A stretch of DNA of 64,000 nt from Methanobacteriota archaeon (lineage in GTDB: Archaea; Halobacteriota; Bog-38; Methanoflorentales; Methanoflorentaceae). The DNA is taken from NCBI GenBank assembly GCA_963719035.1, contig CAVRAO010000002.1, forward strand, positions 128,001 to 192,000, written 5' to 3'. The notes under the pieces were generated by a model that saw nothing but the letters and a program-made list of their open reading frames with translations, did no database searches and was not told the origin of the DNA. A program made the translations under genes and the position numbers. Position 1 is the stretch's first letter. Each line of letters starts with the position of its first letter. Positions 19,542 to 36,910 of this stretch are shown piece after piece.

Positions 19542-19587
19542 CTACTAACGTCTTTAAAATAGCTTCTGACGGCTTGCGCACACGCGC

Positions 19588-19696
19588 AGAAAGCTTTAAT
19601 ATCAATCCCCAGCGTAGTAAGCTGTGCTGCGTCAAGCGGCCTTTACGCTTGTGCATGCCCGGGTAGTGTAGCGGCCAATCATGGAGCCCTGTCGAG
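19588..19696 (+). repeat. Copy 1 of an ~108-bp direct repeat: tRNA promoter + leader + 5' half of tRNA-Asp (19657-19696), left att of element 1
   Basis: Matches 25233-25340 with about 5 differences; the match ends exactly after the anticodon loop (ctgtcgag). Confidence 0.92.
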
Positions 19697-19721
19697 AGCC
19701 CCTCCTAATTTTGAGCCCCTT

Positions 19722-20840
19722 TTGACTACACCAGGCATTTGCGGAACTCTTAGTCCTTTTCACTTCGATTTCGTGAGTGATAAGATACGCACCATATATA
19801 CTACCGATTCAGGGAACGGTCACAGTCTTGATTCACTTCAATTGACGTTTTCGCGGGATCAACTTATCAATTACAAGAAATGGCGTATAGAAGGTCTTGA
19901 TCGGAAAAGCAGCAATTGGATGAACAAGGCCGCTGAGATTGTTTGGCACGGCACGCATGGCGTAATCTGTAAGCTAACAATGGACGCGGTGCGTGACGTT
20001 GCTTTAACCAAATACACGTGCGTTTATTCAAAACGTAAAGTGCTATGTTTTGCTAAAGGTCTCCTCAAGTATCTTGCCAAAACCACCTTCGACACTCGCT
20101 TTCAGGCATTTGAACTCTTCTTGGAGATGCCTAAGGTCCTCAAAATTCGTAAGCATGTTACAAGCCGCATTGTGACTAAGGAAGACATTGAAAATGTGCT
20201 AAAAGCGATTGAACAGGCGTTTAGCATCGGGCGTATTGATAACGCTCACTATCTAAACTACAAAGCGATAGTGTTCTTTGGCGCGTTTACGGGTCAGCGA
20301 CCTTTAGCGACAATAGCAAGATTAACTGCGCGACAATTTGAGGAAGCGGTGAAAATGAAGAAACCGGTTGTTGATGTTCTCCCGTGGCAAGATAAGATTC
20401 GCATGCAGCATTATTGCCCTCTCCACCCGCAAGTCGTTGAGGCTGTAGAACCTGCGCTGGAAGTTAGATTCGATGACGAGCGTGTTTTTGAGCAACTGTC
20501 CTTTCAAGAGTGGCTTAAGTACACAGACATCCGGCTATTGCAAGGAGGCGCTCGCATTGTCAATGGAGACCTGAGGAAATTTGCAGAGCAGCAATCCGAC
20601 GTACTGCAGTGGGATCAATCAAATAAGAACTACATACTAACCCACGGTGTCAGCGGGGTCGATTGGCGTTTTTACAAGCATCCGTTGCCTAAGATCGTGT
20701 ATGACGTATATATGCAGTATTGGAAAGAAGTCGAGCTTTCGTGTTTAAAGTGGCCATGCTTGTTCCCGCACAACCGGCAAAAATACCATACATACCGTCA
20801 TCGGCAAAAGCAAACGTTAGCCTGTGGGCTTCTTTCCTAA
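19722..20840 (+). CDS. Archaeal tyrosine recombinase/integrase, apparently intact catalytic set
   Basis: GAFTGQRP (R), DKIR (K), DLRKF (R), ILTHG (H), WRFYKH (Y); adjacent to tRNA half; start codon uncertain. Confidence 0.88.
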   Translation: MTTPGICGTLSPFHFDFVSDKIRTIYTTDSGNGHSLDSLQLTFSRDQLINYKKWRIEGLDRKSSNWMNKAAEIVWHGTHGVICKLTMDAVRDVALTKYTCVYSKRKVLCFAKGLLKYLAKTTFDTRFQAFELFLEMPKVLKIRKHVTSRIVTKEDIENVLKAIEQAFSIGRIDNAHYLNYKAIVFFGAFTGQRPLATIARLTARQFEEAVKMKKPVVDVLPWQDKIRMQHYCPLHPQVVEAVEPALEVRFDDERVFEQLSFQEWLKYTDIRLLQGGARIVNGDLRKFAEQQSDVLQWDQSNKNYILTHGVSGVDWRFYKHPLPKIVYDVYMQYWKEVELSCLKWPCLFPHNRQKYHTYRHRQKQTLACGLLS

Positions 20841-21087
20841 AAATAAAAAGCCCACGGCCTTATCAAAAACGTATGTTGACGACGATATTGCCCCATGAAC
20901 CCACCTGCCTGCTGAGACGATGGTAGTACTTTAAACTTAAAATTTGTGATAGCTTTTAGCAGGCGCCTATTAGCGGTCAATTCTGACCTCCGCCTCGCTG
21001 AGGCAATCGTAAATTCATCGTTACTTTTTGCTCTACTTTTTTTGTTCTGCGAGAATGTGGAGCACAGGCTATCCCTCACTAAGCGCA

Positions 21088-21798
21088 TCAAGAGACGTGT
21101 CCAATCGGGATAATGTAAAGCGGCTGCTGGTCTGGAGGGGTCTCTAACACTTCGCGCACCATCGAGTCATCAAAGGCGCCGATCGGAACCGCTCCCAATC
21201 CCAACGATGTACACTCGAGCAACACGTTTTGCGCTGCGTGACCAGCCTCGAGGTGGACGTAGCGCTCAGCACGTTCACCGTACTTCGTTGCGGCCCGCTC
21301 GTAGACCCCCATAATCACAAGTTTTAACGGTGCTTGTCGTACGGCGTCCTGATTCAAAGCGGCTTTTGTCAGGTTCTCCTGCACATCCGCTGATCTGATT
21401 TTCCCGAGGCTGTGATTTAGGGGGTTGTAATGGTACACTCCTGTTACGTTCACGACATAGACTTCGAGCGGATACAGCGCGCCCGCAGACGGCACCGTTC
21501 TGAATCCTTGAGTGCTCGTGATTCCTTGAGCGGCCCAAACGAGCTGTGAGAGCTCGCTTAGTGAGATGTCAGCGTCAGTGTACTCGCGTACCGACCGCCG
21601 CTGTTGGAACGTTTCCTCTAATGACATGTTTCCTTTCAGGACTGGGTCGGGAAGCTTGATGACGTCGATGACAGCGAGGTCATGTGATACAGGCACAACT
21701 GCATCGTCGCTCTTTTGCGAGCTCAACGCCATCCACCCTATAAGAGCGGAAGCGATCACCGCAATGACCAGCGCAACGGCCAAGATTTTTTTTCGCAT
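21088..21798 (-). CDS. SagB/ThcOx-family nitroreductase-like protein with N-terminal membrane anchor
   Basis: RRSVREY, RTVPSAGALYPLEVY, LEAGHAAQNVLL, IGAFDD. Confidence 0.9.
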   Translation of the reverse strand: MRKKILAVALVIAVIASALIGWMALSSQKSDDAVVPVSHDLAVIDVIKLPDPVLKGNMSLEETFQQRRSVREYTDADISLSELSQLVWAAQGITSTQGFRTVPSAGALYPLEVYVVNVTGVYHYNPLNHSLGKIRSADVQENLTKAALNQDAVRQAPLKLVIMGVYERAATKYGERAERYVHLEAGHAAQNVLLECTSLGLGAVPIGAFDDSMVREVLETPPDQQPLYIIPIGHVS

Positions 21799-23272: not shown

Positions 23273-23477
23273 CAACGCCCGTGAAAAGTGGGCGCCCCTC
23301 TCGAAGGGTAAAGTCGACATGAAAAACTAAGGTGTAACGCTTTAAAAAATGTCTGGACCGTAGTCGCTTTTTGAAATAACGCCCAGTGTGACGTTATTAT
23401 CGTCGACAGAAAAAACCGATCACGATATTATGAGGCGTGATTCATGTACAAAGTACTGAAAACGTAGGAGGGAACAA

Positions 23478-23639
23478 ATGATTGAGAAGGGACTGATCTT
23501 AACCGGCAGCGATGCGGACGTATTGAGCAGTGCGCTTTCAGAAGTGAAAACGATAGTCTATAAAAAGGCAGGAACTCAATTAGATGATAGCCAAGCGCTC
23601 GATGCGCTCGTTTCGTATTTCCTTAATGCCGAAAGATAG
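23478..23639 (+). CDS. 53-aa hypothetical microprotein
   Basis: MIEKGLILTGSDADVLSSALSEVK...LVSYFLNAER; AGGAGG RBS upstream. Confidence 0.6.
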   Translation: MIEKGLILTGSDADVLSSALSEVKTIVYKKAGTQLDDSQALDALVSYFLNAER

Positions 23640-23654
23640 ACAAAAAGAGAAGTT

Positions 23655-23705
23655 TCACTTGTATTTTAGCCCCTTACGTAAGCGCCTGGTGCTCGGCACG
23701 ATTAT
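23655..23705 (+). repeat. 51-bp dispersed repeat, copy 1 (inverted copy at 32419-32469)
   Basis: 47/51 identity by manual alignment. Confidence 0.85.
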
Positions 23706-23820
23706 TGAGGGGACAGTCGTAAAGCCTGATCGTGGCCAGGAACTGCTCGATCTAAGTTAGATAGCTGGGTCATCTATGGAGTGGCATTACCTAAAAGCAC
23801 GAAGTAAATGGTGACAAAAA

Positions 23821-23997
23821 ATGAACTGTGAAGAAAAACTAAAAATCCTGATGGATGCTTGTGAGAAGGCATTAATGTACGGGTGGGAAGATAACTTCAA
23901 TTGGAGCAAGGATAAACCAGAAGAATTTTGGGATGAAGAAGAAGCGTGGATTGCAATAAAAGAAGCGTTTGTTAAAGTAAAAGGTGACAAAAAATGA
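23821..23997 (+). CDS. 58-aa virus-like hypothetical protein
   Basis: MNCEEKLKILMDACEKAL...KVKGDKK; GGTGA RBS; ATGA overlap with next gene. Confidence 0.7.
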   Translation: MNCEEKLKILMDACEKALMYGWEDNFNWSKDKPEEFWDEEEAWIAIKEAFVKVKGDKK

Positions 23998-24263
23998 GTG
24001 ACACAGATAAAGAAGTCCTTAAAAAAGTATTAGAACTTTGTGAGAAAGGAATCGATCAGGCGAGAAAAGATGCAACAAATTCTGTTGGTACTGCCGAATC
24101 TTATGCGAATGGTCAAGCCGTTGCATATATGACAGTCGTTGAACTAATCATGCGTATGAAGCAAGAAGTCACTCTAGATTATAAAGAGGCGTGGGATTCT
24201 CTAGTAAACACGAAGAGCATCAAATCGATAAAAGAAGAATGGAGTGAAGGCGACAAAAAATAA
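23994..24263 (+). CDS. 89-aa virus-like hypothetical protein
   Basis: GGTGA RBS, AT-rich, ends in GDKK like the upstream gene. Confidence 0.7.
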   Translation: MSDTDKEVLKKVLELCEKGIDQARKDATNSVGTAESYANGQAVAYMTVVELIMRMKQEVTLDYKEAWDSLVNTKSIKSIKEEWSEGDKK

Positions 24264-24501
24264 TAAGTGCAGCAATAACGAAAACAACGATAGCAATTAC
24301 CACAACGAAGGCGGCGGCATTCGTTTTTATAGTCAATCCTATCCTGCGTACCAGCCTCCCTGCCGATTTATGGTATTTGGACTTAAGCAGAGAGCTGGCC
24401 CCGCATTGTTGTACAGCTAGCGCCTAGAGCAATAACGCCGTGTAGCCGCTTATTCTTCATAAATCCGTTATTCGTTTGCTGCTTGGCCACACGTGCTGAC
24501 C

Positions 24502-24523
24502 GGGGCCTAATACAGGCTCTGAC
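24502..24523 (+). repeat. att-like site GGGGCC-TAATACA-GGCTCTGAC
   Basis: 13/15 arm match to the tRNA-Asp anticodon arm, 7-nt spacer. Confidence 0.7.
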
Positions 24524-24620
24524 TAACTCTTTAATAAACCAGCTGCCTCCACTAGTTAAAAAACGAGTTCGGCGTCCCTGCCAAAACGAATTAATAGCAG
24601 GTCAATTCTGGATACTGACT

Positions 24621-25013
24621 ATGGATAGTGAGGGGTCAAGAAGGAAATTCGAAAATATCGGCGATTACATCGCTACGTTTCCTAAGAATGTTCAGCACAC
24701 GCTCAGGGAGCTGAGGAGTGCAATCAAAGAATCGGCGCCTGAAGCTGAAGAAACCATTAGTTATGGAATGCCCACCTTCAAGCTCAATGGTAACTTAGTA
24801 CATTTTGCCGCCTATGAGAAGCATATCGGGTTCTATCCAACCCCTTCCGCCATTCTTGCTTTCAAGGAGAAATTATCCATTTATAAGCAATCAAAAGGAG
24901 CGGTTCAATTTCCAATCGATGGGCCGATTCCGTTAGATATTGTAAGGGAGATGGTCAGGTTCAGAGTAAAAGAAAATCTGACAAAAGGTGCAAGAAGGAG
25001 AAAAAAGGACTGA
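24621..25013 (+). CDS. DUF1801/YdhG-like protein
   Basis: DYIATFP, APEAEETISYGMPTF, HIGFYP, SKGAVQFP; likely start MDSEG. Confidence 0.9.
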   Translation: MDSEGSRRKFENIGDYIATFPKNVQHTLRELRSAIKESAPEAEETISYGMPTFKLNGNLVHFAAYEKHIGFYPTPSAILAFKEKLSIYKQSKGAVQFPIDGPIPLDIVREMVRFRVKENLTKGARRRKKD

Positions 25014-25094
25014 GACTGAGCTGACTTGTTCAAAAACGCTACTTTTATCCTCCGCTGCACTTTAACTAGAACTAACTAAACAAGAGGTGGAATA

Positions 25095-25232
25095 ATGACA
25101 GAAGACGATAAGAACGAAATCATAAAGTGCACTGTCTCGTGCCCCGAGTGTGGTGCTGAGATGGTCTGCACGCACGAAGACCCAAAACACGAAGAGAAGC
25201 ACAGGTGTGAAAAAGGCCACGTGTGGACCTGA
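25095..25232 (+). CDS. 45-aa CPxCG-type zinc-finger microprotein
   Basis: MTEDDKNEIIKCTVSCPECGAEMVCTH...HRCEKGHVWT; GAGGTG RBS. Confidence 0.65.
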   Translation: MTEDDKNEIIKCTVSCPECGAEMVCTHEDPKHEEKHRCEKGHVWT

Positions 25233-25300
25233 AGAAAGCTTTAATATCAATACACAGCTAGTAAGCTGTGCTGCGTCAAGCGGCCATTACGCTTGTGCAT
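25233..25300 (+). promoter_or_regulatory. tRNA promoter (BRE/TATA gaaagctttaatat) and hairpin leader
   Basis: Duplicated at 19588-19656. Confidence 0.75.
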
Positions 25301-25373
25301 GCCCGGGTAGTGTAGCGGCCTATCATGGAGCCCTGTCGAGGCTCCGACTCGGGTTCAAATCCCGACTCGGGCG
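25301..25373 (+). tRNA. tRNA-Asp(GUC), no intron, CCA not encoded
   Basis: Acceptor stem GCCCGGG/CTCGGGC, anticodon arm GAGCC-CTGTCGA-GGCTC, GTTCAAATC T-loop, T-tract downstream. Confidence 0.96.
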
Positions 25374-25754
25374 CTCCTTTTTTGTAATAGAGTAATCTGC
25401 AGTGTTATTTGCTGCTAGGAATTCTAAACTGCGCTTTTCTATGTCGCTATCCTTCTTATTGCCCTTTATTTCTCGTGGTTCGCCTTTAGCGTCGCGTATA
25501 TCCAAAGCTAACCTTAAAGCGCCTATCGTTTCGTCAGCACGCCTTATAATCTCGTCTTTACCCTCTAACACCGCACGCAGCCGTATTATTTCAGTATTAT
25601 CCTGCTTATCAAGTGCGACAATACGACCTTCGACATAAGCAGTTAAAGCTTCAATCGTTAGGGCCGAACGGGTTACGTTATTGCTGTTCGCTCGTTCAAT
25701 AACGGCTTTTAACAGCTCGGCAGGTAATGTAATAGACATACGGGATAGCGTCAT
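25323..25754 (-). CDS. CopG/ribbon-helix-helix + coiled-coil protein reading antisense into the tRNA 3' half
   Basis: RMSITLPAELLKAVIERA....VTRSAL..EAL..Y. Confidence 0.75.
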   Translation of the reverse strand: MTLSRMSITLPAELLKAVIERANSNNVTRSALTIEALTAYVEGRIVALDKQDNTEIIRLRAVLEGKDEIIRRADETIGALRLALDIRDAKGEPREIKGNKKDSDIEKRSLEFLAANNTADYSITKKERPSRDLNPSRSLDRAP

Positions 25755-26085
25755 ACGTTCCGTATGATAATACCTTATTTAGTATTAAGCTGCCGATATC
25801 ATCGCACTCGTTCGTGTTTCTAGAAAATGTCACAAGAACTGATGGCATCAAAAAACCGGTTAAAAGTAGGTACCTGTATAGTTTTTTATAATCATAGCCG
25901 AACGGGCCGCGTGTGCGTGTTTAAACCTCGATATAACCGCCTGTTTGAAGCGATGGAATGGGCAACAGGTAACGCCGCGACTTAATCTTAATAATAGAAA
26001 AAAATCGATAAAATCCTTCTTAACTCGCGTATTGGTCCCGTCGCCTAAATATAAACCGATAGAATTCGGCGCGTGCCCTATCTGC

Positions 26086-26223
26086 TTAATCCTTACATTG
26101 CGGGCATACGTTACTCGTCGTTGATACAAACTCCCAGCAATATATGCACCTATAGATGCGCTTCCAGGGTACGCCGGACGTCGTGTCCATGCGTCCCCAT
26201 TTCGGACGCGTTTTATATGCCAC
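26086..26223 (-). CDS. Zinc-ribbon microprotein (CIYC...CPQC)
   Basis: GTG 26223 or ATG 26190 start; YRCIYCWEFVSTTSNVCPQCKD. Confidence 0.5.
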   Translation of the reverse strand: MAYKTRPKWGRMDTTSGVPWKRIYRCIYCWEFVSTTSNVCPQCKD

Positions 26224-26297
26224 CGCTGCTATATTATCGCCCGCTCTCGTCGAGTTCGTTCAATAATCGCGCGTGTAGCCGCATACTTAGATATCAG

Positions 26298-26414
26298 TTA
26301 TGTCGTTTGCATTATTCTGCGCGAGCGGCGGTAATACTGACAATAAGGGACTAAATCATTATCGCCACGCAGTTTACAATCAGCGTATTTCTCGCACTGT
26401 CGGCAGTCCATCAT
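26298..26414 (-). CDS. 38-aa Cys-rich microprotein
   Basis: MMDCRQCEKYADCKLRGDNDLVPYCQYY...; GGCGTGA RBS-like sequence. Confidence 0.5.
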   Translation of the reverse strand: MMDCRQCEKYADCKLRGDNDLVPYCQYYRRSRRIMQTT

Positions 26415-26438
26415 TTTATTCACGCCTTTTCTAGCAGC

Positions 26439-26567
26439 TTACCTATGTAACCGGACACCCTTATGATAGCGCAGAATCGCTAGAATAATATCATCTGGAT
26501 TATCGGCGTTGATCGTGAGAGAACCGACCTTTATCGGAATTTTTTCCTTCGTCGTTTTATCGTTCAT
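26439..26567 (-). CDS. 42-aa hypothetical microprotein
   Basis: MNDKTTKEKIPIKVGSLTINADNPDDIILAILRYH...; co-oriented with neighbours. Confidence 0.45.
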   Translation of the reverse strand: MNDKTTKEKIPIKVGSLTINADNPDDIILAILRYHKGVRLHR

Positions 26568-26605
26568 ATCTATACACCATCTTAGCGCAATGCCCCCACC
26601 CTACC

Positions 26606-26752
26606 CTATAATTGTATTCTGACGATTTCTCCAAAAGCGTCAGCTGTACATTTGACACATGTGGCGGCGTCCGCCTCTCCATAGGCGCATTCAGAATGGA
26701 GATCGCGTAGGCAGATGTTGCTCTTCACAGTTTCAGTTAATAGTTCTTTCAT
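26606..26752 (-). CDS. 48-aa Cys/His microprotein, C-x4-H-x2-C-x9-C-x2-C
   Basis: MKELLTETVKSNICLRDLHSECAYGEADAATCVKCTADAF...; GGGGAG RBS. Confidence 0.6.
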   Translation of the reverse strand: MKELLTETVKSNICLRDLHSECAYGEADAATCVKCTADAFGEIVRIQL

Positions 26753-26835
26753 TTTGTTTGACTCCCCTTTTGGTATTTTGATAGCAAGGACCTCCCTACT
26801 ACCAATAGCACCGACGACACGTCACTATGTAACCC

Positions 26836-26860
26836 CGCGTGACAACAACTGAGTGTCACG
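26836..26860. promoter_or_regulatory. Palindrome CGTGACA-N9-TGTCACG
   Basis: Perfect 7-bp arms upstream of the microprotein run. Confidence 0.55.
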
Positions 26861-27008
26861 GTATCGACATATGCTCGCAGCTTACGCAGTAGGTCATAGT
26901 CAATAATAGGAAAAGAAGAGTCAATTACCTACCCGGCGGGCGTATCGTGAAAGTACTAACCTGGCGGGTATCTTTCTGTACGAGAGCAATAGTAATGCAG
27001 CGTGATGA

Positions 27009-27422
27009 TTACGTTACGTGTTTGCGTTCCTTTACCGCTTTCGGTAGGTCAAGATATAGCTCAAACGCTTGGTATCGCGCATCAAACCGCGTCTTTGATA
27101 AGTAGCGGAAAAACGCCTTTGCGAAGTTTATTACCTTTCGCTTCGCGTAAATGTCGCTATATTTATCCAGAACGTAATTACGAAGCTCGTTTGCGGTTAT
27201 CCTGCTAATTTCGCCCTTTGTATAGCGCCATAGAATATCTGCGGCCTTATTTAGCCAATTAATCGTTTTTCGCTAAGTCCTGCGATACGAAGGTTATATA
27301 ATCTTTTAACTCGCTTCTCGAAAATGTCAGGTTAAGCTTATCTAGTCTGTCGCTATCGCATACGCTAGAATTAGATTGCTTTATTGAATTTTAACCATTA
27401 ATAGCGTTTAATCGCCTAAATA
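27009..27422 (-). pseudogene. Truncated, frameshifted paralog of the 19722 integrase
   Basis: LDKLNLTFSRSEL / INWLNKAADILW / YAKRKVINFAKAFFRYLSKTRFDARYQAFELYLDLPKAVKERKHVT* aligns with the intact copy; catalytic domain absent. Confidence 0.88.
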
Positions 27423-27470
27423 AGCCCTGTCGAGGCTTCTGATTTTGTTCAGAGCAGACTCTTAGGAAGC

Positions 27471-28307
27471 CTAAACCTGTGGAGGGCCTCGCTCAAGCAG
27501 CTCTTGTATCCGTTGTTCTGCAGGGATTGACTGCTGCCACAACAGTTCGAAGGTGGAGGCGAGGTATTGAGCATACGTTGGGTCATCACTCCAGAGCACG
27601 CTTACCAGTTCTCTAAGCGAGGCGCGTTTTAAGTCGGCGGCATTAATCACGCTCATACCAATTTTTCCATCAAAAACGCAGAACAATAGCCCTGAGTACG
27701 TGTTAAAATGACGTACTTCCATTCCAGCGTCTAAGTGCTCTCGGATTAGCTCAATAAACGGATAAGTGACGTCAGTTATAAATCGTATCCTCCCCCCCCG
27801 GTCTATAAACTTCTTATCGTCCTCAACAAAAAACAAGGATGAAAACACCGTCAGTATAGGGGGGACAACTGCGAACCAGTCCTTTTCAGCTGAGGCCAGG
27901 GCAGATAGCGTTACAGTCACCACTTCTTTCATGCTCTTGAGAATTTTGTACGAGGCAATCTCACCGGCGGGCCGAAACCGCTGTTGCTCTGAGAGCTCTT
28001 GTAGCTCCTGCTTTCGCACCTCCATCTCGCGTATTTCGCTTTCGTGCCTTTTGAGCGCAGCGTCAAGAGCGGTTTCGAGGTCTACTGCTGTGTAAACCGT
28101 TGGTGTATCGAGTGAGGGCCGCACCATACCTTTCTCGATGAGGCCGGTAAGCGTCCGGTGCACGTCCTCCCGATATGTTTTAAGAGACTTGGCGAGAGGG
28201 GAAGGGGTTTTTGGGCCGTACCTAAGCAGATGTAAGTAAAGCTGAGCCTCTTTTTCACTGAGCCCAAATTGAGTTAAACGACGGATGAACTCATCGTCCT
28301 CAGTCAT
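27471..28307 (-). CDS. TrmB-family transcriptional regulator
   Basis: Close paralog of 1453..2289. Confidence 0.9.
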   Translation of the reverse strand: MTEDDEFIRRLTQFGLSEKEAQLYLHLLRYGPKTPSPLAKSLKTYREDVHRTLTGLIEKGMVRPSLDTPTVYTAVDLETALDAALKRHESEIREMEVRKQELQELSEQQRFRPAGEIASYKILKSMKEVVTVTLSALASAEKDWFAVVPPILTVFSSLFFVEDDKKFIDRGGRIRFITDVTYPFIELIREHLDAGMEVRHFNTYSGLLFCVFDGKIGMSVINAADLKRASLRELVSVLWSDDPTYAQYLASTFELLWQQSIPAEQRIQELLERGPPQV

Positions 28308-28531
28308 GCGCTGCCCGGAAGGTACGTGAACTAAGCAGTAAATAAAGATTGGGTTCTGAGGTTCTGGTTAATAATAGGTGAAGTTAGGCGTTGAAAATGT
28401 GGTTTGTGAAATGGTTGGCGCGTGCCCTTCACGTTAGCTATTCATAAAAGTTGCAAAAGGGGAACCCTTAAGCCGCTAAGGTATATACACCTTTACTACA
28501 TAGGTGCTCGCAGAGCACGCACTCATCTGTT

Positions 28532-29017
28532 ATGCCCCACGGATTCATAATTAACGGCGTAAAAGACGCACTTGCAGCCGCCTTAGGGATACTTGAGTCA
28601 CAACAAAAAGAGGTCGCGTGGCTTGTGCCACCTTCGGTTCATTCCCTCGCAACGACCCTTGGCTTCCTTGAAGCAATGAGGGCATTTGTCAAGCGCGGCG
28701 GAGTGTCACGAGGAATAGTTGCCGTGTCGCGCGAGAACGTTGACGAGATACGAATGAGCGTAGAGAGTGGCGAGGACATTCGCCATAGTGACGCGGTGCA
28801 CGAAGTCTTCATGTATGTAGGAGACAAGCAGAAGAGCGTTAGCGCGCTAAACATTGGAGTTGTGGAATTCAGGCTCGATACTCCGGTCGCTGCCTTTTGG
28901 AGTGAAGACCCCACATATATAGAGTACCTGCTCGCTGCCTTCGAGACTGTATGGGCACAGGCAATACCTGCTCAGGAGCGGATAGAGCAGTTAGAAAAAG
29001 AAAAAAAGCAGCGCTAA
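28532..29017 (+). CDS. Stand-alone TrmB effector-domain protein (no HTH)
   Basis: Paralog of 235..714 (IIN.VKDALA, VGDK..S.S, AFWSEDPTY.EYLL). Confidence 0.87.
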   Translation: MPHGFIINGVKDALAAALGILESQQKEVAWLVPPSVHSLATTLGFLEAMRAFVKRGGVSRGIVAVSRENVDEIRMSVESGEDIRHSDAVHEVFMYVGDKQKSVSALNIGVVEFRLDTPVAAFWSEDPTYIEYLLAAFETVWAQAIPAQERIEQLEKEKKQR

Positions 29018-29413
29018 ACGTCATGTGCCTTTAAAGGCTCAGCTTTGTTTTTAGTCGCCGGCTGTTCTCTTGGCTCATTTAACCACACACAGAAGGCAAC
29101 GTTGTCAAGCGCCTAGAACGAGTCGCTGCTTGAACTTGAGCTGCTCGAACTCGACGACAAGTTACTGCTGCTACTGCGATATGCAGAAATTACACTTCGC
29201 ATAGTTTTATGACTTAAACAGTCAATTATAGGGCATCAAAAACATAACCGAAGTTGGAATAGCTACGTAAAAGCAAAAAAGCCATTATTTACGAAATAAG
29301 GGGACATGAAGGGGATCCTGTTTTCATTATTCGATTCGACCCCGGAATACATCGTACGTCAGATGTAATCGCCGTTGGACAGATCAACCCGAGCAGCAGT
29401 TTCTACTTTTAGA

Positions 29414-29435
29414 ATCGGAGCCTCGCAAAGGCTCT
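29414..29435 (+). repeat. att-like site ATCGGAGCC-TCGCAAA-GGCTCT
   Basis: 13/15 arm match, 7-nt spacer, intergenic. Confidence 0.65.
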
Positions 29436-29691
29436 CGCTTCTGGTCTCTGTGAGAACGCGCAAGAAAGTTTTGTGTCACGTTTTGGAAGACTACCTAGCT
29501 AGCAGCAGCGAAGCTCGCGCATAGCGCGACTGCTCGCGCAAGCAAGCAAACGATGAGCTCAAAGTCTGAACTTCAGTGTCTTTTTTGCCGTGCTGCGCGG
29601 CATCTGAGCGCCATGAGTGTGCCGAACGGGTTCTTCAAAAGATTTCAGCAAAAACTTTTTCACTTCATCGTGAGCGTACTCCTAGTACGGT

Positions 29692-30555
29692 ATGACGAGC
29701 GATGATGAGTTTACCCTACGACTCACCGAGTTCGCATTGAGCCAGAAGGAAGCCCGGGTCTATTTTCAGTTGCTCAAATATGGGCCGCAGCCTGCAGCTG
29801 TCGTTGCAAAGCGTCTGGAGACGTATCGTGAGGACGTGCATCGAACATTGAGGCAGCTTGTTAAGAAGGGCATCGCGTGCCAATCACTGAGCAAACCAGC
29901 AGTACACGCGGCGATGCCCCTTGAAGACGCGCTTGATGCGGCCCTGAGACAAAAAACCAGAGAACTGCGGTACAAAGAGGATGTGAAGCAAGAGCTCATC
30001 AGGCTTGCGCCGCGCGTGAGTCCCTTGCCGCTGGAAGAGTATTGCAGTTATCGGGTGGTGACTGGCTGCAATGAGTGCATCGCGGCTAGCTTGGTGCAGG
30101 CCGAAGCGGCGGTGCACGATATTTTAACGATCGGTCACCCTGCTGCGCTGGCATACTCATACAAACAAGGATTTTTCAAGACGTTTCTAGACGCAGTGGA
30201 GCACGGGGTGGAGATGCGCTTCATCCTCGACGTATCCAGTCAAGCACTTGACGCGGTTCGCGCTGCTATCGAAGGAGGGATCGACGTGCGGCATTATGAG
30301 CAGTACCGAGGGATAATGTTCACGCTCGTTGACTCTAAGGAGAGTTTCACGGTTGTGGCGTTTGATCCGCGTTACAGTCCTAAGGACACTAAGCATACCG
30401 CATTTTTGTGCGACAACCCTAAGTACGCGCACAGACTTGCAACCCAGTTTGAGCTGGTCTGGAGACAATCGATCGACGGAACGCAGCGGGCACAAGATTT
30501 GAGGAGCGAAACTCCAGACCCCGCCTCTGACCGGTCCAGCGCGTCCACGTTGTAA
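29692..30555 (+). CDS. TrmB-family transcriptional regulator
   Basis: LSQKEARVYFQLLKYGP...TYREDVHRTL; RHYEQYRGI. Confidence 0.9.
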   Translation: MTSDDEFTLRLTEFALSQKEARVYFQLLKYGPQPAAVVAKRLETYREDVHRTLRQLVKKGIACQSLSKPAVHAAMPLEDALDAALRQKTRELRYKEDVKQELIRLAPRVSPLPLEEYCSYRVVTGCNECIAASLVQAEAAVHDILTIGHPAALAYSYKQGFFKTFLDAVEHGVEMRFILDVSSQALDAVRAAIEGGIDVRHYEQYRGIMFTLVDSKESFTVVAFDPRYSPKDTKHTAFLCDNPKYAHRLATQFELVWRQSIDGTQRAQDLRSETPDPASDRSSASTL

Positions 30556-30745
30556 AAAGTGCTTGCACGCAGCAGCAAACGTCGGCTTTAAACCGTCCGC
30601 TTGAGAACAATAGGGTTATGTGGTGTAAGAAGTGGCAATCGCCTCACAGATTAGGTTTTCAACAGGACGTTTCCCTAATACCGCAAATAGACATTATACA
30701 CGTGCTCAGGCAGCGGATGCCAATAGTTGCCACATAGGTTCTTAC

Positions 30746-30767
30746 GTCGGAGCCTGTGTTAGGCTCC
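30746..30767 (+). repeat. att-like site GTCGGAGCC-TGTGTTA-GGCTCC
   Basis: 15/15 arm match to the reverse complement of the tRNA-Asp anticodon arm, different spacer. Confidence 0.8.
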
Positions 30768-31045
30768 GGCTATCGTACAGAAGAAATAAATGAAGCTCGG
30801 CTATGTGTAATTCGAGCGCTTTAAAGCACGGGCGCGGTTATATTCAGTCCCATGTTTGACAGGGCCGTCTGCAGGCTGAATCATACTATAAAATTAACTT
30901 AAAAAGAAGAGAAACAAGCGGCCTCATATGCTATTGTTCACCTTACCTTAGCATGCTTTGTTCGATTGCAGTGCTGCCGCGTAGGGTCGAACGCGAAAAA
31001 GAAGAGGAACGGTTAAGCTAACACGTGTGCTGCTTGCATAAGCGT

Positions 31046-31345
31046 ATGCAATTTCGACTGGTAGTTATCGGACTCATCGTGTTGGTTATAATCGGGTTCG
31101 TAGTTTTTGTTGCAGGTTCAGTTGTCATAGGCGTAGATATGGCTATATATCCGGCGTGGATGTGGATCATTTCCCTCGTTGTCATCATTTTCCTTACCGC
31201 CATTATCGCCGTGCTACTGGTAGGATGGCAGGATTCCCATTACGACGAGGACGCGCCTGACGAAGAACGCTACTATCGGGACCGCCGCCGCTGCGTTGCA
31301 TGTAACAGCTCTATATTAGGCAATATGCTATCCTACTTGTGCTAG
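31046..31345 (+). CDS. Small two-TM membrane protein
   Basis: Two long hydrophobic stretches and an acidic tail; C-terminus possibly truncated. Confidence 0.55.
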   Translation: MQFRLVVIGLIVLVIIGFVVFVAGSVVIGVDMAIYPAWMWIISLVVIIFLTAIIAVLLVGWQDSHYDEDAPDEERYYRDRRRCVACNSSILGNMLSYLC

Positions 31346-31351
31346 TTTTTG

Positions 31352-31426
31352 GACAATCAGGGGATGTGCCTGAGCTTAATTGGCAATTTGGAGACTATTG
31401 TCAGGTATATCCTTAGCTTTCGGGAA
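31352..31426 (+). repeat. Hairpin-forming dispersed repeat, copy 2
   Basis: GGGATGTGCCTGA pairs with TCAGGTATATCCT (13 bp including G-U). Confidence 0.8.
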
Positions 31427-31734
31427 GCAAAACATAGGGTCGTAATGCGCTGCAGTAATATGAGGGTTGATCAAATGCCAATTGACATCAGTTGAGCCCA
31501 TCACGCGGAAACCCACACTTTTACCGCAGCCCCTTACGCCTGCTTTGTATCTCTCAATTCTTAAAATGTAAATTTAAGGAGCAAAGAGCTGACGCTATTT
31601 GATAAAATAACGCTTTAAAGGCAATGTTCTCTTATTAACTACAGGTGTGTGCTGGACGGTAGCTGGACAGTATAAACTACATACCATCCACACGTGCTTT
31701 TTGATAGAAAAAAGAAAAGGGGGCAAAGCCCCTA

Positions 31735-32250
31735 CTATGCCTTCACTACGACGGTGTGCGCTGCGCGGTCTCCAGTCCGCTGTCTCTTATCTGACGTCCA
31801 AATAAGAATTGCACCGAGCAAGAACGGAATAATGAACGGTATTGCGTCGATGATCAGCAGTAAGGAACGCACGAGTGCATCGACATAGCCAATCTTTGAA
31901 CCATCCTCTTTGACCACTTTAATCTTAAGGGCCATCATGCCTACCGTCTGTCCATACGCTCCCAAGAGGAGCGTGAAATAGATGAGCACGATGAGTGATG
32001 ATATGACGCTGCCAAGTCCTGCGAGCGAATTCGCTGTGGTGGATACGTAAAAGCTTCCATTAGTAAAATTCGCGCTATTAAAGACGGGCGTTTGCAACGG
32101 ATTGGCGAAAACTGACGCAATAATGCCCGCAATAATGACATCGATAAGAAGAGCTACGAATCTGACACCGACGCTACGGTACTGCAGCGGTGCTGGAGTC
32201 ATTTCTGGAGCTGCGGCCATTTCAGGCGTTGGGGTCATTTCATTTGCCAT
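31735..32250 (-). CDS. RDD-family membrane protein
   Basis: RFVALLID, GQTVGM....IKVV, RQRTGDRAAHTVVV. Confidence 0.92.
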   Translation of the reverse strand: MANEMTPTPEMAAAPEMTPAPLQYRSVGVRFVALLIDVIIAGIIASVFANPLQTPVFNSANFTNGSFYVSTTANSLAGLGSVISSLIVLIYFTLLLGAYGQTVGMMALKIKVVKEDGSKIGYVDALVRSLLLIIDAIPFIIPFLLGAILIWTSDKRQRTGDRAAHTVVVKA

Positions 32251-32418
32251 TCGTTCACCTCCTTGTGGCTTTGTTGCCTAATTGTGTGTTTGGTAGGTAA
32301 AAACCTATGGATGGGATACGGTACCTGAACGAGTGTCCGTTCTTTTCAAATTTTGATAACGAAGAGAAGGGCACCGCGGAGCTAGGCTTTGCGACTATCT
32401 GTGCCCCCTTGCCTTTCG

Positions 32419-32469
32419 ATAATCGTACCTAGCACCAGGCGCTTACGTAGGGGGCTAAAATACGAGTGA
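32419..32469 (-). repeat. 51-bp dispersed repeat, copy 2
   Basis: Reverse complement of 23655-23705. Confidence 0.85.
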
Positions 32470-32610
32470 CGTAGTCCTTTTTCCTACCCAACATTCACAG
32501 CGCTTCTGAAGCACGAAACGAGCTCATCGAGTGCCTGCGCATCCCCAGGCTAGCTTTATGCTCGAGAAGTACTGTAAGAAACAGGTTACGGAAGCTGAGG
32601 AACATATGAA

Positions 32611-33114
32611 ATGAGTATCCTTGTAAATGTAACAATAAGCATAATTGTTCTGGTAGTAGCATACATCATAGCTTCTCTTTACTATCCTATGCTGGCAGGA
32701 GGCGCAGCATATGGTCGTACTCCGAGGAAGATTGTAGCTGAGGCTCTTAAACTGGCAGACCTTAAAAAAGATGAAGTCTTCTACGACCTTGGATGTGGGA
32801 CAGGAGAAGCCCTTATAGAAGCCTCAAAGTTATGCGATCATGTGAAGGGAGTTAAGATAGGGCCTATTCGATGGTTTATAGCCAAGCTTAGAGCAAGAAA
32901 AGCCAAAGTCATTCTAGGAAACCTTTTCAAGCAAGACATTTCTGACGCTGATGTTATATTCATATTCCAGTACCAAGGAAGGATAAACAACAGAATCGTG
33001 ATGAAAATAAAGGCTGAAACACGAAGCGAAACAAGGATCATAAGTTATTTGCACCCAATAGAAGATATGAAGTTCGTCAAAAGCCAAAACGAGATTTTCA
33101 TTTACAAGACATGA
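32611..33114 (+). CDS. Membrane-anchored class I SAM-dependent methyltransferase
   Basis: FYDLGCGTG, ISDADVIF; N-terminal TM helix. Confidence 0.88.
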   Translation: MSILVNVTISIIVLVVAYIIASLYYPMLAGGAAYGRTPRKIVAEALKLADLKKDEVFYDLGCGTGEALIEASKLCDHVKGVKIGPIRWFIAKLRARKAKVILGNLFKQDISDADVIFIFQYQGRINNRIVMKIKAETRSETRIISYLHPIEDMKFVKSQNEIFIYKT

Positions 33115-33192
33115 AAGGATCTGTCAACTCTTTAACAAGGCGTCTGCTGCCACCGGAGGGCATCTGTTGTTTCTGCTACGGTAGGGGCGTTG

Positions 33193-33214
33193 GTCGTAGC
33201 CTGTATTAGGCTCC
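33193..33214 (+). repeat. att-like site GTCGTAGCC-TGTATTA-GGCTCC
   Basis: 14/15 arm match; spacer identical to the 24502 site (inverted); degenerate second copy at 33257-33277. Confidence 0.78.
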
Positions 33215-33389
33215 GGTTGCTGTGTTGAATTAGTTCGTCAGAGCGTTCAGAAATAGGTCGGAGCTCAATAGGCCTCCACTGACGTGGAATTTTGCAAATA
33301 GTCTGAAAGAAAAAACATAATGTAAACTAAATTACGAGATTATTCTGATGCACAAAAAAATGAAAGAAAATACATTAAATTGTGGTAAA

Positions 33390-34143
33390 ATGCAAGAAAC
33401 AGACCTCTATCTTACCATATTCCAACGGAAGTCCGTTAGAAAGTACGATTTAGACCCCTTCGATGAAGATACATTAAAGGAGCTCAGAGAGCATCTTCAA
33501 ACTTTAAAACCGTTGCATAAGGACATTAAAATTGAATTTAAGATTTTATCTCCCGATGCTGTTATAAGAAGGACGATGAGAAAAGCACCGCACTATATAG
33601 CTGTTTTTGCAGAGGTAAAAGAGGGGTATCTAAGCAACATAGGGTTCATGCTACAGCAGATGGATCTATTATTTTCTGCTAACGGATTGGGTAGTTGCTG
33701 GCAGGGGATCCCTACTCTCAAAAAAGAAGGTTTGGCAAGTTCACGTCTGAAATTTATCATGTTAATGTACCTTTGGAAAGCCCCAGGAAACATTACACCG
33801 AACAAAAACTTCCCAATTCAAAAGAAAATCGCTCCAGGAAATAAGTGACATTAAAGGTGCAGATGATTTACTGGAAACAGCTCGTCTTGCTCCTTCTGCA
33901 CGTAATGCACAGGGGTGGTTTTTCACTGGTGATAAAGATTTAATTCATGCATATTACCGTAAACCAAGCTTCATTGCGGGACTTTTAACCAAAAAATATC
34001 CTCCCATGGATGTGGGAATCAGTCTTTATCACTTGAAACTTGGTGCAGAACATTTTGGCAAGGAAACTGAGGTTATATTTGATAATCCGGATGGCAATAC
34101 TCTCAATGATTATGAGTATGTTGCCAGTTTGCGCTTAACATAA
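33390..34143 (+). pseudogene. Nitroreductase-family protein, frameshift near 33770
   Basis: IFQRKSVRKY, GLGSCWQG, then FGKPQETLHR...ARLAPSARNAQGWFF in a shifted frame to TAA 34143. Confidence 0.8.
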
Positions 34144-34343
34144 TCAAATGCCCCATTTGTTCTCCGGTGGTTTCTACCAATCTTTCGGCTCCGGTCAATG
34201 TCTCGAATTTGGACGAAAAAACGTCCTGATGTGAGTCAGTCAGAGTCCCCACCAGGAAAGTAATTCTCACTGTAGTTTTCCGGCCGATTTTGAAGCGAAA
34301 ATCTCCGAATACGTTTTTCTAAGTTGAATACCGATAATCGTGC

Positions 34344-35054
34344 ATGGACCTGCCAGGGATCCTTTCCTGTAGAGTGGAGCGCCTGAAGTTCAAAGCGACC
34401 AACCTCGACCTCGGTCTGGCGCTCATCGCCACCTTCCTCCTGCCCATCGCCTGCTGGCTGCTGCTGGATTGGGGCGGAGCCCTCCTGCCTCTAATCCTGT
34501 ACTATGGGGTGTTCTGCGTGGCCATCGTGCTCTGGCGCAAGAAGAGCCTCGACTATGTTAGACCGGTCAGTTGGTCCTTCAAGCTCTTCATTGGGCTGTT
34601 GGCTCTCCAGATCTTCATCCAGACGATCGCCTACCTGACCATCATACCCGTCAACGATCCCTTGGAGGGGGTCCTGCTCACACTGCTCATCTGGGTCCCC
34701 ATCAACGCGGCCATGGAACAGCTGCTTTGGGTCTACATATTCGATGCCTTCGAGACGCGCTGGACGGAAAGGCGAAAGCGCTTCATAGGAGGGGTGATCG
34801 GGATGTTGATGGCGGTAATATTCGTAGGCCTTATACACGTCCTGTTCTGGAGTAAGTTCCTGCCTTCCTTCGAATCCATCACGCCTTGGTCTCAGATCTT
34901 CCTCATCGCCCAGTTCCTGATCACGCCCGGTTACCTGCTCCTTTACCGCAGGACCGGCTCGATGTGGCCGGTATTCGCCATCCACATCATCGCCGATGCG
35001 GTGCTAGTGTTGGGCGCGATGTATTCCATCTGGCCAGCCCTTTGGACCTTGTAA
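34344..35054 (+). CDS. CPBP/Abi-family intramembrane protease-like protein
   Basis: Multi-TM; NAAMEQLLW, GLIH, RTGSMWP.FAIHIIAD. Confidence 0.75.
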   Translation: MDLPGILSCRVERLKFKATNLDLGLALIATFLLPIACWLLLDWGGALLPLILYYGVFCVAIVLWRKKSLDYVRPVSWSFKLFIGLLALQIFIQTIAYLTIIPVNDPLEGVLLTLLIWVPINAAMEQLLWVYIFDAFETRWTERRKRFIGGVIGMLMAVIFVGLIHVLFWSKFLPSFESITPWSQIFLIAQFLITPGYLLLYRRTGSMWPVFAIHIIADAVLVLGAMYSIWPALWTL

Positions 35055-35564
35055 GGCGATCAGAAGATGGGGCTCTGGCGGAGCATGTCCATGTCGGTGA
35101 CGTAGCGAGCTGCCTCTCCACGATGAGGTCTTGCCTGCCCTTCAGCTGCAGCAGGACCGCCTGAGGAAGCTCTGGGATTCATTCTATAAGTTGCTTAAAT
35201 CTCACTTCTGCCCAATACTGCATATAAACATCATAGACGTTTTCAGGCAACGGATGTTTATAATGCTTCCAATCGATTCCACTCACTCCGTGCGTCATAA
35301 TATACGCTCGGTTTGAATGATCTCACTGAATACCGTCGCCATATTGTTCGTATCTTAGCGACTTTTAGCAGTTACAAAGCTTTATCGTAGTTCGTAGTGA
35401 TTTACTATGGCTGCTAAGCATGCCACAGCCGACACGGCATGCTGCGAGTTCATAAGCTATTCATTTTTGTGTAGGGCTTCCCTACGGGTGATCCCCGTAG
35501 CCTGTCGCGCTTGCGCTGAGGCGGGCATGCAATTCTCAAAAAGAGATAAGGAGGCGAAGCTAAG

Positions 35565-35918
35565 ATGGTGACATTTGTAGCGATTTCAAGGCATAACGCC
35601 GAAGTGTGTGCGTTCCACGAAGAGAAATCTGCAAAGACAATGATGGACTGGCTGAAGAAGGCTGGGGAGCTCGAAGCGAAACACGGAGTGAAAGTAGTTG
35701 CCGCTGCGAACGTGATTCAAGAGCATTTGTCAGTTCAGGTGCTCGAAGCTCCGACTTTTGAGGCGTTCCAAGCGTATTCAAAAGAACCGGAAATGATGGC
35801 CATGATGAATTGGAACATGATTGAAATCAAATCGGCAATGACGAACGAAGAAGTTGCCCAAATGATGCAGCAGATGATGAGGCCTGATGACCTGCATTTT
35901 TCTTTTTTAAGTCAATAA
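35565..35918 (+). CDS. DUF3303-like dimeric alpha/beta barrel protein
   Basis: H..E.C motif, GVKVV......EH....VLEAP..EA; GGAGG RBS. Confidence 0.65.
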   Translation: MVTFVAISRHNAEVCAFHEEKSAKTMMDWLKKAGELEAKHGVKVVAAANVIQEHLSVQVLEAPTFEAFQAYSKEPEMMAMMNWNMIEIKSAMTNEEVAQMMQQMMRPDDLHFSFLSQ

Positions 35919-36067
35919 GAAACGGCGTTCACTACCACCGCCGCACCAACATCAAGAGAGCGAGCAAATAGATTGGAATCCATTGCTACCCCCCAAAATC
36001 TATGATGAGCGGCAGTGGATAAACATCAAGTCAAGAAAGTACACGCCCTATTTCTGGCCCAAAAAAT

Positions 36068-36550
36068 TTAATCTGCGTTCTTCGCGCCTACTATCTTCAC
36101 CTCTTTCCCCGGCCGGTCCATAGCGCCAGTCTTCACTTTGCCCATCTTCTCCACCACATCCATCCCCTCAACAACTTTGCCGAAGACCGGATGAGCTTTG
36201 TCCAGGTAGTTGTTGTTTACCAGGTTGATGAAGAACTGGCTGCCGCCCGTGTTCGGACCGGCGTTGGCCATGGCAATGGTCCCCCGATCGTTGCGGTTGT
36301 GATCAGTGAACTCATCCTTGATAGCGTAACCCGGTCCACCCCGGCCAGTGCCCGTGGGGTCCCCGCCCTGGATCATGAAGCCGTCGATGATGCGGTGGAA
36401 GACGGTGCCGTCGTAGAATCCCTTCTCCACCAGCTTTCGGAAGTTGCCCGCGGTAATGGGCATATCATCAAAAAGCTCCAGGGTGATGTCCCCCATGCTG
36501 GTGTTCAATAATATCTTGGTCCTGCCTGTATGCGAAGTACTTTCTGCCAT
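36068..36550 (-). CDS. Cyclophilin-type peptidyl-prolyl isomerase
   Basis: FYDGTVFHRIIDGFMIQGGDPTGTG, AMANAGPNTGGSQFFI. Confidence 0.95.
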   Translation of the reverse strand: MAESTSHTGRTKILLNTSMGDITLELFDDMPITAGNFRKLVEKGFYDGTVFHRIIDGFMIQGGDPTGTGRGGPGYAIKDEFTDHNRNDRGTIAMANAGPNTGGSQFFINLVNNNYLDKAHPVFGKVVEGMDVVEKMGKVKTGAMDRPGKEVKIVGAKNAD

Positions 36551-36721
36551 GTCCTCATCCCTCAATGATGTATCTTGGATTCTCTATTTCTGGTTGATGC
36601 ATCGTCATTCGGATTGTCTATATAAAAAACTAAGGGACGACTGCAGGATAGAATACAAGCCTTTAAGCTATTGCATTATAGTAATGTCTAGCATTACAAT
36701 ATTGTAAAGGCTGGTAAAACT

Positions 36722-36826
36722 ATGGTCACTGTTGAAGATAAAACAACTATTACTGTCTCTAAGGACACAAAAGAATGGTTAATAATGCTCAAGCTCGACA
36801 TACAAGCAGCCAAGTATTTCAAATAG
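36722..36826 (+). CDS. Short RHH-like protein or fragment
   Basis: MVTVEDKTTITVSKDTKEWLIMLK resembles the beta-strand/helix start of archaeal RHH antitoxins. Confidence 0.4.
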   Translation: MVTVEDKTTITVSKDTKEWLIMLKLDIQAAKYFK

Positions 36827-36888
36827 ACATCAAGCATGCGCTCTGGCAGCGGATTCTGGCATTACTTCTCAGACTCTTAACGCCCTCA

Positions 36889-36910
36889 GTCGCAGCCTAA
36901 AGGAGGCTTC
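36889..36910 (+). repeat. att-like site GTCGCAGCC-TAAAGGA-GGCTTC
   Basis: 13/15 arm match, 7-nt spacer, intergenic. Confidence 0.65.

Follow-up and report, generated by a model that had tools for sequence, protein, structure and literature searches.

SSV-type tyrosine integrases present a puzzle, as integration destroys their own gene. How the islands that they build grow and are reshuffled is poorly understood, and almost all knowledge of these integrases comes from hyperthermophiles. Gene capture by them is already known, reportedly from work by She et al. in 2001 and 2004, as are crossovers within anticodon loops. Here we analyzed 64,000 nt (the window; C2:128001-192000, on contig CAVRAO010000002.1) from the 2.19-Mb assembly GCA_963719035.1 of a Methanobacteriota archaeon (G000; C2, C8, C11, and C12 are its contigs). 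An SSV-type element is integrated there at the gene for the aspartate transfer RNA (tRNA-Asp), and nearby lie short sites that combine the arms of the tRNA-Asp anticodon stem with a different 7-nt spacer. Whole 22-mers of this kind are conserved across the genus, and homology between loci stops at them. In the reading that we think probable, this integrase family uses them as core-type sites; the spacer would be the overlap that sets compatibility, and blocks without the integrase gene (int) could be joined or removed without the tRNA. The genomes compared (G-numbers) were metagenome-assembled, and relatives among them are not independent samples; 79 metagenome loci (L-numbers) were also used.

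According to passages in PMC7253208, the defining trait of suicidal integrases is an attachment site (attP) inside int, with the gene split on integration. For SSV1 Int, the overlap is described as the anticodon loop, with the stem supplying the inverted repeats (PMC8371274, in the part on this integrase). As far as these two sources describe SSV1, pTN3, and pT26-2, whose type I integrases capture genes at tRNAs, our locus shares with them the attP within the open reading frame (ORF), the Int(N)/Int(C) split, the anticodon-loop crossover, and the int pseudogene pieces (PMC8371274, PMC7253208). It differs from them in having 22-bp stem mimics with private spacers, which lie away from tRNA sequence and mark module junctions, and in the abundance of int 3' tails, of which each genome carries dozens. 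The host lives in sediment or peat and is a mesophile, not a hyperthermophile, and its Int had no match in Pfam, NCBIfam, or PDB sequence searches.

Integrons likewise combine a tyrosine recombinase with short sites repeated between small blocks of genes; in both, arrays are co-oriented and reassortment resembles that of cassettes. In contrast to integrons, this locus showed no evidence of IntI-specific features, attI and Pc were not identifiable, and the genes lie on both strands. Integron attC sites are 55-141 bp long, with R''/L''-L'/R' organization and extrahelical bases, whereas the sites here are simple 22-bp palindromes with a 6-7-bp stem. An earlier note on this DNA, made from the sequence alone, had called the sites integron-like; this holds by analogy only and not as membership, since IntI, attC, and attI were not found. 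Its remark that the sites contain no RYYYAAC/GTTRRRY was right about the missing attC architecture and wrong in the letter, as site 30746 carries GTTAGGC.

The pdif modules of Acinetobacter plasmids, which are Xer-exploiting elements, are gene modules bounded by short dif mimics with conserved arms and a variable spacer. They share with our locus the principle of modules bounded, in varied contexts, by mimics of a chromosomal recombination site, but their enzyme is the host XerC/D and their model site is dif, in place of a tRNA anticodon arm and a presumed element-borne SSV-type integrase. Secondary attachment sites of the lambda type also resemble the primary attB core (arms plus 7-bp overlap). 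These are usually degenerate, sporadic, and not conserved, whereas our sites have exact arms and spacer classes that are maintained from species to species, and they have multiplied. By analogy, then, the system appears to work like an integron or like pdif modules, and it is a member of neither. A limited full-text literature search, to which archaeal integron papers did not belong, did not return any account of conserved mimics of anticodon arms that bound gene blocks and carry alternative spacers.

We scanned both strands with the query GTCGGAGCC-N7-GGCTCC, allowing at most two mismatches, and used 100 dinucleotide shuffles of the window as controls. The scan gave seven arm matches in the window, which represent six sites, as 30746 was counted on both strands. 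The shuffles had a mean of 0.07 matches, with none of the 100 exceeding one or reaching seven. The stems are perfect (6-7 bp, loops of 5-7 nt). The sites, with one degenerate site of a second class, are as follows:

24502..24523 (-), class A site; the + strand reads GGGGCC-TAATACA-GGCTCTGAC; inside the int element, ~100 nt upstream of the first ATG of a DUF1801 gene
25301..25374 (+), tRNA-Asp(GTC), found by ARAGORN and Rfam; anticodon arm GGAGCC-CTGTCGA-GGCTCCGAC, the attB core; arm match at 25327 (-)
29414..29435 (+), variant site with spacer TCGCAAA; the other strand reads AGAGCC-TTTGCGA-GGCTCCGAT; between ORF 28532-29017 and a TrmB-like gene, 29692-30555
30746..30767 (+), class A site with spacer TGTGTTA (TAACACA in the int sense); arms 15/15
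33193..33214 (+), class A site with spacer TGTATTA; junction at which the methyltransferase block meets the site-B/nitroreductase module
33257..33278 (+), degenerate class B site (1-nt indel); consensus GGAGCC-CTATTGA-GGCTCCGAC, which differs from the tRNA loop by two transitions
36889..36910 (+), diverged site with spacer TAAAGGA; between cyclophilin and rubrerythrin genes; rightmost int-related relic

The five non-tRNA sites and the tRNA-Asp arm had all been listed in the earlier note, and the pattern scan recovered each of them at exactly the same coordinate. Its observation that the sites fall between cargo genes was confirmed by the ORF map (5/5 non-tRNA sites intergenic), and the rest of the 64 kb contains no further match at up to two mismatches. 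Of three decayed copies that it proposed, the one at 33257 is real only if its 1-nt indel is allowed, being the positional homologue of the recurrent class B; those at 23715 and 32384, with 6-7 mismatches in 15 positions, are at background level, which is reached near ~15-47% of 2000 random window positions. Both sit in a different repeat of ~350 nt (23363-23719; inverted at 32384-32543). Copies of this repeat with 74-81% identity were also seen in C12, C8, and C11.

Across the whole 2.19-Mb assembly the query matched 15 times at 13 sites, clustered in islands, with six of the 13 within one 12.4-kb stretch. Two parts of the earlier note's proposal were not supported. Strict anchoring to the tRNA does not agree with the presence of the same sites in other islands (C2:424070, C8:5414, and arrays in G010). 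Nor was a single array supported: 24502 lies beyond the tRNA, within the 5.6-kb int element, and 29414 and 36889 have other spacers, so that under a 7-bp-overlap rule they should not recombine with the A sites.

The class A site reads GGAGCC-TAATACA-GGCTCCGAC in the int sense. The window has it at 24502, 30746 (as TAACACA), and 33193; further G000 copies lie at C2:424070 and C8:5414 and, more degenerate, at C8:150900 and C8:186309. With at most one mismatch, it was found in 10/17 other genomes of the genus (up to six copies) and in 0/23 genomes outside it, and the reversed class A pattern was absent from all genomes scanned. Among 185,579 species genomes, the exact class A 22-mer occurred in 12 stretches, all from this archaeal group; no IMG/VR contig contained it. 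Asp arms with any spacer were present in 17 of the 18 genus genomes, and their reversed control in none of the 18. Arm-bearing sites numbered 4-21 per genome. The recurring spacers were CTGTCGA (tRNA), TAATACA (A), CTATTGA (B), CTATAGA/G, TGGTGGA-like, and TGYATCA, and all classes share GGAGCC-N7-GGCTCC, that is, inverted arms around a 7-nt spacer. The variant at 29414 (TTTGCGA) has a near-identical counterpart in G013, and no int tail was detected beside 29414.

When the arms of all 31 G000 tRNAs were used as queries, 21 matched only themselves, and the few extra singletons fitted the ~6 chance matches expected in total. The tRNA-Asp arms had five extra sites, against ~0.19 expected by our own estimate. 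Together with the shuffles and the reversed-pattern controls, this excludes a chance or composition artefact. Conservation is confined to the 22 bp, plus ~17 bp on one side in some copies, and the 22-mer is nearly intact across species whose flanks are ~80-93% identical or unrelated. We also rejected a tRNA gene, a pseudogene, or an att scar, as no similarity to tRNA extends beyond the 22 bp and the A spacer lacks U33; because the flanks carry no tRNA-like sequence, the sites are not attL/attR scars. A dispersed repeat of the repetitive extragenic palindromic (REP) or miniature inverted-repeat transposable element type was rejected as well, given the 13 sites per 2.19 Mb, their clustering in islands, and their heterogeneous flanks.

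Perfect stems of 6-7 bp with loops of 5-7 nt, in co-oriented sites within arrays, are what one would also expect of folded single-stranded hairpins used by some enzyme other than an SSV-type integrase, in the manner of integron attC, IS200/IS605, or REP with its associated tyrosine transposase. We regard this as very improbable. The variants seen in the stems are non-compensatory, and the arms are constant while the spacers differ by class, which points to a DNA core recognized by protein rather than to an RNA fold. The arms moreover equal the stems of tRNAs that are integrase targets, copies per genome remain far from the hundreds, and neither a second recombinase nor a gene for such an enzyme was found among the 20 island ORFs scanned.

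The gene blocks next to the two co-oriented A sites are as follows:

30768..33192 (no strand), block of 2.4 kb between two co-oriented A sites; ORF 31025-31345, RDD-family gene 31735-32250 (-), methyltransferase-like gene 32611-33114
33348..35054 (+), cargo; TM1586-type nitroreductase 33348-33848, CAAX-protease-like gene 34344-35054

In 12/12 locus pairs, colinear homology ended between positions -9 and +33 of the site. Examples are L006/L016 (homology from -873 to +23, 91%), L014/C8:5414 (-845 to +33, 90%), L011/L038 (-252 to +20, 96%), and the pair of L112 with window site 33193 (-3 to +621, 93%). At this last site, L112 matches one side only, and L010 and L003 match the other side only. The 80-nt flanks of 38 distinct A copies were clustered; three near-duplicate pairs (L023, L038) leave ~35 independent ones. 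The flank clusters reassort: left cluster L0 occurs with right cluster R0 or R1, L1 with R2 or R4, and L5 with R0 or R4. Left clusters L2, L5, and L6 each occur with two right sides, and R0 was found with at least 15 left sides. The cargo at 33348-35054 is 91% identical to DNA beside an intact int in L067.

Breakpoints in synteny coincide with sites, as the earlier note had expected if recombination takes place there. G010, a complete relative, has only 64 nt between tRNA-Asp and a run of A site, spacer, B site, and nitroreductase gene, the homologue of window 33185-33848; hence ~7.8 kb (roughly 25397-33192) are extra in our window, and one edge of this extra DNA is an A site. Among metagenome contigs, read only where their depth was not low, one passes from 30725 to 33193 through a class-b linker of which it has 30 letters, so that the 2.4-kb block between the A sites is missing; a second connects 25354 with 33186, as in G010. 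An inversion between 24502 and 33193 was considered and rejected: no joint was found at those places, and an opposite-strand joint (24342/32401) sits in another repeat. The note's view of the sites as recombination sites is consistent with the ends of homology, the reassortment of flanks, and these breakpoints; its further claim, that the integrase at 19722 acts on them, draws on arm identity only.

Could the sites instead be operators of a dimeric transcription factor, for example a TrmB-like regulator, with an incidental likeness to the tRNA stem? Palindromes of the form 6-N7-6 in intergenic positions would suit such a factor, TrmB-family genes lie at 27471-28307 and 29692-30555, and in G000 as in G010, ~70 nt separate the class B site from the start of the nitroreductase gene downstream of it. 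This explanation seems improbable to us, since operators rarely need spacers that are conserved by class, most A sites precede a dead int tail and not a promoter or gene, and homology breaks exactly at the site. Furthermore, two arm families match, at 15/15 positions, the stems of two tRNAs that are integrase targets.

G000 contains more than 35 int fragments scattered in islands, mostly the last 40-65 codons. Those listed for the window (aa, amino acid residues of Int) are as follows:

26991..27272 (-), remnant of another int by int homology, aa 61-152, 53% identity
30615..30725 (-), int 3' tail, aa 318-351; abuts site 30746
35188..35349 (-), long int 3' tail, aa 289-342, 65%; without a site
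36814..36858 (-), short int 3' tail, aa 319-333; nhmmer E = 1e-7

In 18 of the 38 class A copies, one of two linkers comes after the site and leads into the final int codons (HPLPEHVYDVYM...stop). Homology to the int profile starts 14-26 nt past the site, at about codon 312-319. Tails also adjoin other spacer classes in a co-oriented array of G010, where A, TGATGGA, CTATAGA, and CTATAGG occur within 5 kb. The tails are decayed by stops and frameshifts. About 24 of the 29 anchored tails in G000 are longer (aa ~275-340) and lack a site, and intact ints have no site at the corresponding codons. In several relatives, the tails trail an intact int in the same orientation, often in co-oriented series. 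In L038, the first tail lies 23 nt after the int stop (C-terminal motif HPLPDHVY versus SPRPEPVY). The class-a linker directly after the site (e.g., window 30720-30745, reverse complement) contains a second small palindrome, ACGTA-AGAACC-TACGT, in several copies.

Several explanations of this association were tried and set aside. A C-terminally split suicidal int was rejected because int(N)-like coding sequence was found upstream of 0/53 sites. The site is not part of a coding int variant, as no ORF enters from upstream in nine loci translated and int homology appears only past the site. A by-eye likeness of the site to int codons 299-307 (9/22 identical) was not significant and was dropped. 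The association between site and tail fits neither a C-terminally split int nor simple decay.

The tails lend some weight to the view that the sites are fossil junctions, i.e., inactive leftovers of a few ancient events, produced for example by an extinct int with attP in the 3' part of the gene. Such leftovers would have spread passively with the tail by homologous recombination and island duplication, and there would be no cassette system at present. The int-tail module on one side of almost half of the class A copies, the decay of the tails, the mixture of spacers within arrays, and the many rearrangements that bypass sites all fit this view. Against it, the 22-mer stays nearly intact across species while the adjoining tails decay, both flanks reassort and not only the side away from the tail, and the int(N) half expected from a C-terminally split int was missing at all 53 sites. 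Tails are also lacking in the second arm family, described next. We judge such an origin unlikely.

This second family carries the arms of tRNA-Val (GTCGCC/GGCGGAGRT). Non-tRNA copies occur in G000 at C8:381729 and C11:86713, and spacers including TATATCA, TACATCA, and TGTATCA recur across the genus. In G010, Val-arm sites at C1:1264028 and 1266907 lie downstream of the tRNA-Val at 1262684. The flanks are mostly unrelated, and the few that are shared again combine differently. SSV-type ints adjoin tRNA-Val; a search for Val-type int tails beside the Val-arm sites found none. On the anchor-tRNA strand, the class A spacer of the Asp family reads TGTATTA and differs by a single base from TGTATCA of the Val family. 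A third integrase target is tRNA-His, with att fragments beside 5 of the 20 ints examined.

The element at tRNA-Asp has SSV-type ('suicidal') architecture, with attP in the ORF, an Int(N)/Int(C) split, and a bounding partial-tRNA repeat. Apart from the tRNA listed above, its parts are as follows:

19588..19696 (+), attL; duplicates the 67 nt upstream of tRNA-Asp and its first 42 nt, up to a point within the anticodon loop
19697..20840 (+), Int(C), main part of the SSV-type tyrosine integrase; upstream through attL the frame stays open, giving 425 aa in all
21088..21798 (-), cargo of the 5.6-kb element, nitroreductase-family gene (Pfam PF00881, E = 7e-37)
25150..25340 (+, start approximate), Int(N) piece; reads into the 5' half of tRNA-Asp, in frame with Int(C)

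A direct repeat of 109 nt (19588-19696 versus 25233-25340, 95% identity) bounds the 5.6-kb element and duplicates the promoter region and 5' half of tRNA-Asp. The last mismatch between attL and attR confines the crossover to ATCATGGAGCCCTGTCGAG, which comprises the anticodon loop and the 5' strand of its stem. The int ORF begins directly after attL (19697/19722-20840) and is labeled 'integrase' only in some source annotations. Full-length homologues (425-443 aa) contain ...PGSVAAYHGALS..., the translated 5' half of tRNA-Asp, and residues 61-95 of one of them, P0011, match 25234-25338 at 77%. Given these homologues, the frame open through attL, and its phase with the ORF at attR, attP lay inside the int gene and integration split it.

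The Int protein had no Pfam or NCBIfam match, including to the Phage_integrase and IntI profiles, and a profile of it found only spurious matches among PDB sequences. One homologue alone matched a PHROG 'integrase' (E = 1e-5). The AlphaFold model of Int has a predicted local distance difference test score of 77.9, with low confidence at residues 299-320. Its top Foldseek matches were XerA, Cre, lambda Int, and Tn1549 Int, at probability 1.00 and template modeling scores of only 0.26-0.46; IntI (2a3v) ranked 32nd among generic recombinase structures. R193, R285, and Y330 are invariant among the homologues and H308 is conserved in at least 90%, the catalytic roles being our own assignment. Judged by these features, Int would work like an SSV-type integrase, and the sequence searches do not place it in the SSV1/pTN3/pT26-2 family. 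Every other genome of this archaeal family that was scanned (23/23) had members of the int family, the more complete genomes 20-48 matches each; in other families of the phylum, 0/17 genomes had any. This load of SSV-type integrases is unusually heavy for mesophilic archaea.

The integrated Int(C) frame (425-aa open frame; window 19563-19722) keeps conserved tRNA-encoded residues, owing to the length of the att repeat (109 nt). Since little is conserved in the first ~60 residues, and the split takes away no more than these, the 'suicide' may be incomplete here. Seemingly full-length int ORFs that read through att in a chromosomal context, with hypE upstream, were seen in L033, L035, L036, L062, L091, and L100. 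They suggest either that elements stand in tandem or that int stays intact through long att duplications. According to Badel 2020 (PMC7253208), tandem insertion of an identical suicidal-integrase element, restoring int, had not been observed. The 5682-nt contig L033, with its 'full-length' int, was considered as a free circular form and rejected, as it starts with hypE and is hence chromosomal; terminal repeats, a sign of circles, were found in none of the 79 metagenome loci.

We provisionally assign the sites to the 19722-type integrase because their arms equal the stem of tRNA-Asp, whose crossover maps to the anticodon stem and loop; this enzyme would then be the one that acts on them. In the mechanism that we consider probable, integrases of this family would bind two 6-bp inverted arms identical to the tRNA-Asp anticodon stem, with the 7-bp spacer between the arms as the strand-exchange overlap. 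Exchange would require matching overlaps, so that TAATACA sites would recombine with one another and not with the tRNA. Blocks of one to three genes without int could in this way be inserted, deleted, and re-joined, leaving the tRNA untouched. We infer an overlap role for the spacer and recombination that goes on to the present day. Binding and cleavage of the sites by Int, and dependence on overlap identity, are predicted by this mechanism.

A number of observations weigh against this mechanism. The presumed link between Int and the sites depends on the identity of the arms. The copies that enter the conservation profile were selected by motif, which makes conservation inside the 22-mer partly circular. 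Arrays mix spacer classes, both in the window and in G010, which would make most neighbors incompatible. A model of core sites does not predict that an int 3' tail is so often found beside a site. The metagenome contigs are weak evidence, as they were placed at 90% likeness and come from mixed strains, and further joints (29179 to 31066, 23705 to 31033, and 24342/32401) end away from sites. So does a duplication of the RDD gene region (31706-32312, 93% identical to C11:104075-104660). Processes other than recombination at these sites therefore also reshuffle the island. Finally, mimics of the tRNA-His arms were absent from the 18 genomes scanned, and the sister genus, which has the int family in 6/6 genomes, showed at most two candidate mimics in five genomes; for both reasons, the phenomenon is not a general property of these integrases.

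If the sites do function as proposed, stem mimics with alternative overlaps would offer such integrases a simple and testable route for moving int-less blocks, and the principle of flanking modules with mimics of a chromosomal site (dif/pdif, attC) would extend to archaea and to tRNA anticodon arms. The 22-mers with swapped spacers would be concrete biochemical substrates, and the sites could mark cassette boundaries in uncultured methanogen-related archaea. A bolder and doubtful extension is that of an integron counterpart in archaea, operated by SSV-type integrases that split themselves, in which mimics with private overlaps would be cassette sites for capture, stacking, and exchange without damage to the tRNA. 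The int 3' tail might then be functional, as a replacement C-terminus that repairs int upon cassette insertion or as an antisense or immunity determinant.

Other features of the region were also recorded. The only tRNA detected in the window by ARAGORN and Rfam was tRNA-Asp(GTC), and between 19000 and 38000 Rfam found no other known RNA family. Genes for aRF1, TiaS, and HypE adjoin the island, and the genome is archaeal. The nitroreductase region of the 5.6-kb element (20984-21798) recurs with 99-100% identity where contigs C8 and C2 begin and is an assembly-breaking repeat. A small zinc-ribbon-like ORF (...CPECG...C..H...) at ~25100-25232 (+) ends just before attR. TrmB-family regulators have many paralogues, with genes at 1481-2250, 27471-28307, and 29692-30555 in the window and others in islands of C12, C8, and C2.

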